64,000 nucleotides of DNA from Alphaproteobacteria bacterium (lineage in GTDB: Bacteria > Pseudomonadota > Alphaproteobacteria > SP197). Below the pieces are notes generated by a model, which was not told the origin of the DNA, ran no database searches, and worked only from the letters and a program-made list of their open reading frames with translations. The translations under genes were made by a program, and so were the position numbers. Positions within the stretch are counted from its first letter, which is position 1; the number at the start of each line of letters is the position of its first letter. Positions 58,534 through 62,987 of the stretch are shown here, in pieces. The DNA lies in NCBI GenBank assembly GCA_965228895.1, contig OZ245842.1, forward strand, positions 1,760,001-1,824,000. The letters are read 5' to 3'.

Positions 58534-60741
<2,208 letters not shown>

Positions 60742-60940: not shown

Positions 60941-61627
60941 TCATGACAACGCCCTGACCATGCCGGCGAACAGGTTGACGCCGTCCTGGGTCTTGTGGCG
61001 TGCGCAGGTCGCGTCTTCGGGATGCGGCATCATGCCCAGCACGTTGCCGGCTTCGTTGGTGATGCCGGCGATGTCACGGATCGAGCCGTTGGGGTTGGCG
61101 CGCTCCTTGGGTTCGTCGGGACTGGGAACGTAGCGAAAGGCGACCCGGCCTTCGCCTTCAAGCCGATCCAAGGTTTCGTCGTCGGCGAAGTAGTTGCCGT
61201 CGCCGTGCGCCACCGGCACACGGATGACATCGCCGGAGTCGTAGCCGTCGGTGAATGGCGCTGCCGCATTCTCGATCTTCAGCGAGACATCGCGGCAGAC
61301 GAAACTGACGCTGGCGTTCTTCAGGAGGCCGCCGGGAAGCAGGCCGGTTTCGATCAGCGTCTGGAAACCGTTGCAGACACCGAAGGTGGGCGTGCCGGCC
61401 TTCGCGCTCTTCACCACGTCCTTCATGATCGGCGAGTGAGCCGCCATGGCGCCGCATCGGAGATAATCGCCATAGGAGAAGCCGCCGGGCAGGACGATCA
61501 GGTCCGTCGTCGGCAAAGCGGCGTCGCCGTGCCAGACCATGGTGACCTCGGCGCCGGCACGGGTCAGCGCGTCGGACATGTCGAGTTCGCGGTTGGTGCC
61601 GGGGAAGACGACGAGGGCGGCTTTCAT
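60941..61627 (-). CDS. purQ: Phosphoribosylformylglycinamidine synthase glutaminase subunit PurQ
   Basis: [29 protein letters not shown] and GMMPHPE. Confidence 0.97.
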
Positions 61628-61718
61628 GACGGTCTACCGGGCGCGGTCAGCGTATGGGCTGAACACAGTCGAAGGGTGGGGTGGAAGAGGGACCATGGCA
61701 GACATACTGCCTGGCCTG

Positions 61719-61961
61719 TCACGTCTCAAGCTCCACCGCGTAGTTTTCGATCACCGTGTTGGCGAGCAGCTTACGGCACATCTCTTCGATCTCCACGCGC
61801 GCCTTCTCGGCGTCGGTCTCGGCCAACTCTATCTCGATCACCTTGCCCTGGCGGACGTCTTCGACACCCTGGAACCCCAGCGTGCCCAGCGCGTGATGGA
61901 TGGCCTTGCCTTGTGGGTCGAGAACACCCTTTTTCAGGGTGACGTGGACTCTAGCCCGCAT
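61719..61961 (-). CDS. purS: Phosphoribosylformylglycinamidine synthase subunit PurS
   Basis: VTLKKGVLDPQG, VRQGK and LLANTVIENY. Confidence 0.97.
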   Translation of the reverse strand: MRARVHVTLKKGVLDPQGKAIHHALGTLGFQGVEDVRQGKVIEIELAETDAEKARVEIEEMCRKLLANTVIENYAVELET

Positions 61962-62220
61962 TTCCCAAACTCCCGACGCTCTGCGTCGCGTTGTGGTGAG
62001 TCAGATGCGAGCGAAAGCTGCGAAAAGCGTATCGGGGAATACGGTTGAGCTGCTTTCGCCCGCAGATGGCCGCCACGGCGCGACCCTTCGGGCCGGGTGA
62101 ACGAACCGACGGCGGGCGTCGAATGGCTTGGCCGATGTCCCACATCGCCCTTCGCCCTTCTCCTACTCCGTCGGATCGTTGACCCGGCGCAGAGCATCGC
62201 GAGTTTGGGAAGTGCGGGCT
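61953..62220. mobile_element. 268-bp MITE-like element with 36-bp terminal inverted repeats, inserted into the 5' end of purS
   Basis: 61953-61988 matches the reverse complement of 62185-62220 at 32/36 positions. CT dinucleotide at both junctions; precise removal restores an intact purC/purS overlap. Confidence 0.75.
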
Positions 62221-62225
62221 GACCT

Positions 62226-62987
62226 TCACGGCGCGACCTTCGGCAGATCGGTGACGTTAGCTGCCTCCGGCAGGATGCCGAGGCGTCGTGCGACTTCCTG
62301 ATAGCCCTCGGCAACCTTGCCGAGATCCCTGGCAAACCGATCCTTGTCCATCGGCTCGTTGGTCGAGAGATCCCACAGGCGCGCGCTATCGGGCGTGATC
62401 TCATCGGCGATGACCAGGCGGACATCGTCCTCGAAATAGAGCCGGCCGAACTGCAGCGTGAAGTCGACCAGGCGAATACCGGCGCCCAGGAACAGGCCCG
62501 ACAGGAAGTCGTTCACCCTCAACGACAGGTGGATCATGTCGTCGATATCCTGGGTCGCCGCCCAGCCGAAGGCGGTGATGTGCTCTTCGCTGACCAGCGG
62601 ATAGTCGAGCTCTTCGGAGCGCAGGTAGAACTCGATGATCGAGCGGGGCAGCGGCGTGCCTTCCTTGATGTCGAACCGCTCGGCGAACTCGCCGGCGGCG
62701 ACATTTCGGACCGCGACATCGATTGGCAGCACCTCGACCTCGCGGACAAGCTGCTCGCGCATGTTGAGGCGGCGCACGAAGTGGGTGGGAACACCCATCT
62801 CGTTCAACCGGCTCATGATGAACTCCGAAATCCGGTTGTTGATCACGCCCTTGCCGTCGATCACACCGGATTTCTCCGGGCGCCTGGCGTGGGCCTCGTC
62901 CTTGAAATGCTGAACTAACAGGCCTGGCTCTGGTCCTTCGTAGAAGACCTTGGCCTTGCCTTCGTAAACGCGCCTTCGGCGTGCCAT
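62226..62987 (-). CDS. purC: SAICAR synthetase (PurC) homolog with degenerate active-site motifs
   Basis: [38 protein letters not shown] and position upstream of purS; DFKLEFG reads DFTLQFG. Confidence 0.9.

Follow-up and report, generated by a model that had tools for sequence, protein, structure and literature searches.

The account of MITEAba12 from Acinetobacter baumannii in PMC6382973 describes a miniature inverted-repeat transposable element (MITE) of 113 bp that is related to ISAba12, makes a 9-bp target duplication, has weak predicted structure and carries at least two stops in all six frames. In three MITEAba12 copies, an adjacent gene takes its first four residues (MQQS) from the outward-reading end of the element, which has start codons near both its ends (PMC6382973). 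Correia (NEMIS) elements of Neisseria, ERIC and RUP are presented in PMC2229807 as simple stem-loops of 100-200 bp, with terminal inverted repeats containing 5'-TA-3' and a target duplication, RUP being linked with IS630-Spn1. According to the same source, TA-ended MITEs are co-transcribed with their neighbours, form long stems in transcripts and in some cases have open frames fused to host genes; the effects ascribed to them are on mRNA processing and stability, promoters and in-frame fusions. PMC2229807 also covers the Rickettsia palindromic elements (RPE), which are palindromic and mobile, are tolerated in protein-coding genes and are translated in frame within the host protein. Here, we investigated a 64-kb window of an alphaproteobacterial genome (G000; positions 1,760,001 to 1,824,000 of contig OZ245842.1, assembly GCA_965228895.1), in which a mobile element of about 270 bp separates the purine genes purC and purS. 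All coordinates refer to this window, and all operon genes lie on its minus strand. Transposon insertions within genes are normally knock-outs.

We found that the 268 bp between purC and purS are a MITE-like insertion. The insertion, a purS start donated by the element and coupling of purS to purC through a bridging frame, all as a property of the element family, together make up what we regard as the probable explanation of the locus. The purC gene (62226-62987 in the open reading frame (ORF) list), encoding SAICAR synthetase (Pfam SAICAR_synt, E 4e-63), ends at a TGA stop (62226-62228) that overlaps, as GTGA, the ancestral purS GTG at 62227-62229. The element together with its flanking TA duplication, which reads CA...TA here, occupies 61952-62221; these boundaries were taken from the alignment of family copies, and the purC-side TA has decayed to CA. 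The initial annotation had delimited the element at 61953-62220 with 36-bp repeats identical at 32 of 36 positions. Its net length of 268 bp and its inverted repeat stood; the bounds now include the duplicated TA, and the arms are corrected to 39 nt each, 87% complementary and 190 nt apart. The purC-proximal arm (62182-62220), the 5' arm in the mRNA, and the purS-proximal arm (61953-61991) were both identified by inverted-repeat search, by the predicted fold and by covariation, which is seen in helix 1. Between them lies an internal core (61992-62181) with two hairpin arms and the small hairpin of a three-way junction, according to the predicted fold and to the consensus fold with pair counts from 69 copies. 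On the minus strand, the two junctions read ccGTGAAGGTC/AGCCCGCACTTCCC and GGGAGTTTGGGAAATGCGGGCT/AGAGTCCACGTC (a slash marks an element boundary here and below). Excision of 61953-62220 (268 nt) in silico gave GTGAAGGTC/AGAGTCCAC, which encodes M-K-V-R-V-H from a GTGA overlapping the purC stop.

The purS-proximal arm carries a Shine-Dalgarno (SD)-like GGGAG (61970-61974), which lies 8 nt before a new ATG at 61959-61961. This ATG comes from the element and is read as ATG CGG GCT A/GA (M-R-A-R), and thus the sequence at the junction upheld the proposal that the element end supplies the ribosome-binding site, the ATG and the codons M-R-A. The old GTG now opens a 92-codon bridging frame (61951-62229), predicted earlier and present in the ORF list, which crosses the element and stops at a TAG (61951-61953) made of the terminal TA of the element and a G of the flank, 8 nt past the A of the new ATG. 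From the ATG, purS (61719-61961, 80 aa) is intact and matches Pfam PurS (E 6e-35) with residues 3-78 on profile positions 2-77 of 77.

We then compared the locus with its counterparts in relatives. In seven genomes (G002, G003, G005, G007, G010, G012 and G014), the flanks of purC and purS adjoin, 0-5 nt apart, compared with 273 nt in G000. In G002, which belongs to the same genus as G000, the junction gcaacGTGAAGGCCCGCGTCCAC shows a GTGA overlap followed by M-K-A-R-V-H, and the empty purS site is GTGAAGGCCCGC; GTGA or ATGA junctions also occur in other relatives. Among 29 relatives' loci examined, one (L006) was without purS, and all 28 loci holding purS showed an element-free N-terminus of the form (M/V/L)-(K/R)-(A/V)-R. 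An empty GTGA site was therefore present, the same spacer with an MRAR start was found in none of these relatives, and the ancestral, GTGA-coupled purS start inferred at first was borne out. These empty sites, in the same genus and in six other genomes, refute the alternative that the 268 bp represent a purS regulatory leader acquired by vertical descent, for example a riboswitch-like RNA, with no insertion at all. The strongly conserved and covarying fold described below would suit such a leader, but copies of the same sequence lie before, behind and between unrelated genes and are bounded by a TA duplication, and no Rfam family matched at E<=1 within 61500-62600 on either strand; we consider this explanation virtually excluded. 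A promoter and terminator scan of 61600-62600 revealed no sigma-70-like promoter and no intrinsic terminator.

The element is single-copy in G000, both by BLAST and by word-7 blastn. G001 and G002 have copies 78-86% identical at unrelated sites, and G025, which belongs to another family, has one that is 69-71% identical. The check first proposed, a search for further copies, thus revealed a repeat family and no second copy in the G000 genome. A filled purC-side junction was detected in two further samples (contigs of public sequencing runs). One contig, in run X5, spans the whole filled site at about 92% identity, with 83 differences and 4 gaps over 1001 nt, indicating that the allele has persisted through appreciable divergence. 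A start predicted to be buried in a stem might mean that the insertion crippled purS and that the gene is decaying or dispensable. We judge this very improbable, because purS is intact with a full-length Pfam match, its product is 92% identical to the PurS of G002, the filled allele is kept in a relative about 8% diverged, and purQ (60941-61627; Pfam GATase_5) and purL (58534-60741; ORF list), downstream of purS, are both intact. In G001 (95% complete, 500 contigs), PurS was not found with the query used. A contig of another organism in run X3 (record 15) joins purS and purC by 97 unrelated letters (window 61934-62274), which suggests that a relative has yet another type of spacer, the third, between the two genes. 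A further copy, at L036:3001-3191 (G002:C71), consists of the right half only and adjoins an inverted 40-nt terminus, suggesting a rearranged or nested copy.

To describe the family, we searched a species-representative genome collection with a pattern based on the right ends of six copies, which gave at least 119 loci. A family member was present at 113 of the 119 loci listed (nhmmer), and the other 6 resemble chance matches. The copies end in TA/GCCCGCA...TGCGGGC/TA or, written longer, TA/GCCCGCATTTCTCAC...GTGAGAAATGCGGGC/TA; their modal length is 270 including both TAs, and the terminal inverted repeats are kept across 69 aligned copies. Two clean pairs of empty and filled sites showed the TA duplication. 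In the first, the empty G053 allele tttcgtTAGagctc corresponds to tttcgcTA[element]TAgagctc in G049, and in the second, the empty allele gacgtTAaggtc of G053 and G054 (G054: gacgtTAacgtc) corresponds to gacgtTG[element]TAaggtc in G049. The target logo is YTAR and nothing further, with Y at -1 in 81/90 copies and R at +3 in 84/90. A BLAST census counted 7, 14, 12, 6 and 5 full-length copies in G049-G053, respectively. The family has inverted repeats and a TA duplication, is small and non-coding, and occurs as dispersed copies with empty sites in relatives; by these defining features it is a bacterial MITE, and no autonomous partner was found in the five genomes scanned. These results confirm the initial annotation of a MITE-like insertion between purC and purS, through empty sites in relatives, dispersed copies and the TA duplication of the two clean pairs.

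By record title, the family is found mostly in Alphaproteobacteria, including Inquilinus, Hoeflea, Pelagibacterium, Roseibium, Ensifer, Mesorhizobium, Pelagibius and many metagenome-assembled genomes. Its distribution is patchy: of 401 species sampled evenly across the class, 7 matched (BLAST E<=1e-8; two candidates scored per genome), and within the family and order of G000, for which the searches gave an identical set of 33 genomes, the element is confined to its genus (3/33 genomes). Copies also lie on contigs labelled Caldilineaceae, Anaerolineae, Chthoniobacterales, Planctomycetota, Akkermansia, Verrucomicrobia and 'Mycobacterium sp.' (L055, L069, L075, L079, L081, L100, L121 and L160); these could reflect horizontal spread or mis-binned or mislabelled contigs. 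No match to the element was found in PLSDB plasmids. A scan of five genomes for the 17-nt terminus (up to 2 mismatches) yielded only pairs spaced by at most about 290 bp, solo ends, and mini-derivatives of 41 bp and 74 bp. Among the latter, L208:2540-2580 is a 41-bp hairpin of two termini, and L209:2518-2591 and L210:2516-2589, each about 74 bp, hold the termini and a few internal bases. In the open full-text literature, subscription journals being outside the scope, no published description of the family was found. The purS case is one member of a new, patchily distributed MITE family that is unusual in being compatible with gene starts and stops, apparently by adaptation.

The start and stop signals at the element ends were assessed in 90 unique full-length copies, obtained by merging a motif-based set with the BLAST census of five genomes. 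At either end, the inward reading is TAG (or TAA) and the outward reading SD-N8-ATG-CGG-GCT-A; the ATG is present at 80/90 right ends and 73/90 left ends, and the SD core at 53/90 and 43/90, respectively. The results showed that 33 of the 90 copies are start donors, in which the ATG of an end opens a Pfam-supported gene (30 at the right end, including purS, and 3 at the left). In another 32, which donate no start, the terminal TA together with a G or A forms the stop of a long neighbouring ORF with high G+C content at third codon positions (GC3) that enters the element, and the remaining 25 do neither. In all, 24 left and 23 right ends form stops. The Pfam domains of start-donor genes often begin at profile position 1-2 within the first ten residues. 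Genes opened by the right end include MnmG/GIDA (6-300 on profile 1-295), OTCase/OTCace_N (6-146 on 1-148), CobW, TruB, Ddl, PurH, DAO, PfkB, GST, CcmE and OYE, and those opened by the left end encode a histidine kinase, a DUF1223 protein and a prephenate dehydrogenase. In 13 of the 69 motif-set copies, an ATG stands precisely 5 nt ahead of the left TA, with other offsets at 0-3. With an inward TAG and an outward SD-N8-ATG at both ends, copies survive on the stop codons and first codons of genes, and this is a property of the family.

Orthologous alleles showed how the starts are replaced. The argF site is empty in 5/5 other Inquilinus genomes, the same species included (ATGGCTGACGTCCGG), and its product begins M-A-D-V-R-H-F at the empty site versus M-R-A-S-V-R-H-F in the filled strain. 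For ddl, four orthologues are empty and one is filled, and displaced starts are also revealed by orthologous empty sites of a PfkB kinase gene and of a Pyr_redox gene. The old ATG of a DAO-type oxidoreductase is 26 nt upstream, and M-R-V has taken the place of nine residues. At L163:1501-1770 and at about position 1900 of L214, the empty site TTAG doubles as the stop of two convergent long ORFs (TAG/TAA), and after the insertion each convergent gene keeps a stop made from the element end. An element-free PfkB gene of Inquilinus (L235; G440:C12, about 121025) starts ATGCGAGCCAGG (M-R-A-R), near the element-derived ATG CGG GCT ARG, and other empty PfkB alleles start M-A-S-P-K or M-T-P-P-K; this start may be the scar of a lost element or a coincidence. 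In G000, no gene other than purS was found to start with ATGCGGGCTA, as a scar without an element would. Codons 2-4 of Inquilinus ddl and PfkB vary in sequence and length among close strains (ATGAAGTCC vs ATGACGAAGTCC) with flanks 90-97% identical (L225-L228, L234-L238), and the extreme N-terminus of these genes seems unusually free to change. Clustered mismatches beside the site in purS, argF, ddl and the Pyr_redox gene had suggested that target bases are altered during insertion. We dropped this idea, because ordinary divergence is simpler in view of the two clean pairs and the variable codons 2-4 of empty alleles.

We next assessed the predicted structure of the element. The G000 element has a minimum free energy (MFE) of -187.6 kcal/mol, compared with -132 +/- 5 for 100 shuffles (z -11.1), and in the predicted mRNA fold an outer stem of about 40 bp, formed by the terminal repeats, encloses the SD and the AUG. 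RNAalifold on 69 unique full-length copies (mean column identity 61%) returned a three-way junction, with the terminal repeats as outer stem and two long hairpins and a small one inside. Paired cells amounted to 95.9% of 6463, compared with 78.0% in shuffles and 34-44% when partners were slid, and compensatory changes on both sides were present in 69/94 pairs. The covariation score was 0.477 versus 0.150 shuffled and 0.05-0.08 slid. There were 200 G.U cells and 87 A.C cells, and the MFE was equal on the two strands, with the forward strand better in 29/69 copies. Thermodynamic prediction and covariation both agree with the stem originally suggested to sequester the purS ribosome-binding site and AUG.

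From these observations we propose the following course of events. A non-autonomous transposon of about 270 bp inserted at a TA at the boundary of codons 3 and 4 of purS, 8 nt after the first base of the GTG, and thereby severed purS from its translationally coupled start. The outward end supplies GGGAG, 8 nt and ATG CGG GCT in frame, so that PurS would begin M-R-A-R in place of M-K-(A/V)-R. The two inverted repeats are predicted to pair in the mRNA as a stem of about 40 bp burying the SD and the AUG. Ribosomes finishing purC would resume translation at the old GTG and proceed along the stop-free 92-codon frame across the element, melting the stem, and would terminate at the TAG 8 nt past the new AUG, where purS may be initiated by coupling or reinitiation. 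The geometry at purS, with the TAG 8 nt past the A of the ATG and GGGAG 8 nt upstream, fits that of a coupled pair.

The bridging frames of the family were compared between start donors and other copies. Of the 30 right-end donors, 20 have the frame closed by the terminal stop, 7 have it closed up to 30 nt upstream of the ATG, 1 has it closed 3 nt beyond and 2 have it closed early; among the other 60 copies, the terminal stop was reached in 15, a stop within 30 nt upstream in 14, read-through occurred in 14 and an early stop in 17. The frame thus ends at or near the new ATG in 31/33 start donors (28/30 right, 3/3 left) versus 29/60 others. An in-frame old start is present within 29 nt of the left TA in 26/30 right-end donors, at distances from 5 to 29 nt. 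The donor orientation is 30:3 despite similar SD and ATG rates at both ends, and the reverse-direction frame is closed early in 51/90 copies and open in all 3 left-end donors. A rival explanation accepts the insertion and the donated start and dispenses with coupling: the SD-ATG would be used directly, through stem breathing, a helicase or co-transcriptional initiation before the 3' arm pairs, and the 92-codon frame would be incidental to a GC-rich, stop-poor element. The forward frames of the element are generally stop-poor, including the 29/60 non-donors whose frame is open to near the end, two donors lack a bridging frame, and a window for direct initiation is conceivable with the 3' arm transcribed last. 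This explanation does not account for the enrichment of the frame in donors in the very orientation that is used, for the orientation bias itself with SD and ATG at both ends, or for the old start retained by most donors, and the predicted stem is very stable; we therefore consider it unlikely. The putative reinitiation by ribosomes leaving purC, as first suggested, gained comparative support here, and coupling through the bridging frame appears to be the best-supported mechanism. Another candidate, that the bridging frame encodes a real protein, was rejected: no Pfam family matched at E<=1 in 8 copies and there was no codon periodicity, with entropy by codon position of 0.86/0.85/0.80 and 17/24/27 variable columns in a young subfamily.

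Several points weigh against the insertion, start donation and coupling as a whole. The G000 site differs from the empty G002 site at 4/5 bases and G002 has no TA there, so the exact ancestral target in the G000 lineage is reconstructed, not seen. The first copy set was gathered through a conserved end motif, which biases it towards copies with that end; the BLAST census alone, which needs no conserved end, gave a similar share of start donors (17/44). In five genomes, the terminus scan found no longer element, transposase or autonomous partner bounded by the family ends. The stem is almost entirely Watson-Crick and equal on both strands, so that it could be a DNA-level need of transposition and not a feature of the mRNA; RNA, single-stranded DNA and cruciform DNA are all candidates for the form under selection. 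About half of the non-donor copies likewise have an open bridging frame, which is therefore partly an inherited property of the element. The contrast in frame endings between donors and other copies has a Fisher p of 2e-5, and, because the copies are related by descent, this test and the binomial tests overstate the evidence. Two donors, L109 and L116, have early stops and no nearby old start, and the 30:3 orientation bias could stem from the insertion mechanism. Finally, comparison between copies and relatives is what points to use of the ATG at 61961 and to coupling.

We also estimated how often such positions would be hit by chance, using a crude home-made gene caller on G000 (4500 genes, 79% coding). 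The genome contains 10,591 YTAR sites, of which about 5,400 lie outside called genes and 1,486 in stop codons, and in-frame YTAR sites at 5, 8, 11 and 14 nt after starts number 27, 27, 20 and 21 (95 in total). On this rough background, stop-codon copies are about as frequent as expected, within roughly two-fold, and start donors are, as a rough estimate, more than ten-fold over-represented. Young copies, 90-97% alike, in the two Hoeflea genomes G049 and G053 are already on starts in 5/12 cases. The idea that start donors are long-lived, locked-in survivors was discarded, as their share showed no copy-number trend (9/21, 5/21 and 19/48 among the matches listed). Active targeting of translation-start regions by the mobilising enzyme, as opposed to survival of harmless insertions, could account for 33/90 donors when so few in-frame sites lie near starts, for the young copies already on starts and for the flat share. 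However, the target logo is YTAR alone, the distances from the old starts are spread from 5 to 29 nt, the background is rough with a gene caller at 79% coding, and insertions elsewhere in genes are lethal while intergenic ones may be deleted fast, two filters that act even on young copies. Targeting as the cause of the excess is thus doubtful. A wider and equally tentative reading, which we do not favour, is that the family is translation-aware and shaped for gene boundaries by its inward stop, outward SD and ATG and stop-free passage for ribosomes, that its fold is needed for some step, and that it actively prefers starts. That step could be mobilisation, by an enzyme that is not a transposase of the classical kind with its gene between the ends, or it could be the shielding of the interrupted operon against polarity.

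These findings indicate that the family makes insertions in first codons and stop codons survivable by bringing replacement translation signals. The N-termini of housekeeping genes (purS, purH, argF, ddl, mnmG and truB) have been rewritten in this way in several alphaproteobacterial orders, and start codons inside repeats are easily miscalled in annotation. For translation control, the copies are natural constructs in which a long stem is predicted to hide a start and an upstream frame would open it, an arrangement that can be tested with reporters. For the biology of mobile elements, the family is notable for a strongly covarying fold of 270 nt, for having no known partner enzyme and for an excess on starts that is roughly more than ten-fold. 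If the translation-aware reading were true, the family would rewire start codons and put genes under translation-dependent control across Alphaproteobacteria.

Compared with the known systems, MITEAba12 as described is the closest precedent for start donation, being a non-autonomous element with terminal inverted repeats whose outward end donates an N-terminus. By that description, donation by MITEAba12 is anecdotal, whereas about one third of the copies donate here, and the present element is set apart by its length of about 270 bp, TA duplication, three-way junction, stop-free frame and SD. The Correia/NEMIS, ERIC and RUP elements, again compared by description, share small size, TA-ended inverted repeats and a target duplication with it; systematic supply of an SD and start, or rebuilding of stops, characterises the present family and is not mentioned for TA-ended MITEs in the accessible text of PMC2229807. 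In contrast to the RPE as described, which are translated within the host protein, the present element is traversed in a different frame, and the host protein begins anew at the element end. Within the open full-text literature (subscription journals outside), we found no MITE that combines an SD and ATG at both ends, stop rebuilding, a stop-free bridging frame and a covarying three-way junction. IS630 prefers CTAG/TA targets, and the terminal inverted repeats, TA duplication and palindromic YTAR target, which includes CTAG, resemble IS630/Tc1-mariner elements; the difference is that five genomes held no transposase gene or longer element with the family ends. In translational coupling, an upstream frame stops a few nucleotides from a downstream SD-bearing start that is held in a structure opened by upstream translation. 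The purS arrangement would differ from such textbook pairs in that its upstream frame, 92 codons long and with no sign of coding, was made by a transposon and replaces the direct overlap of purC and purS.

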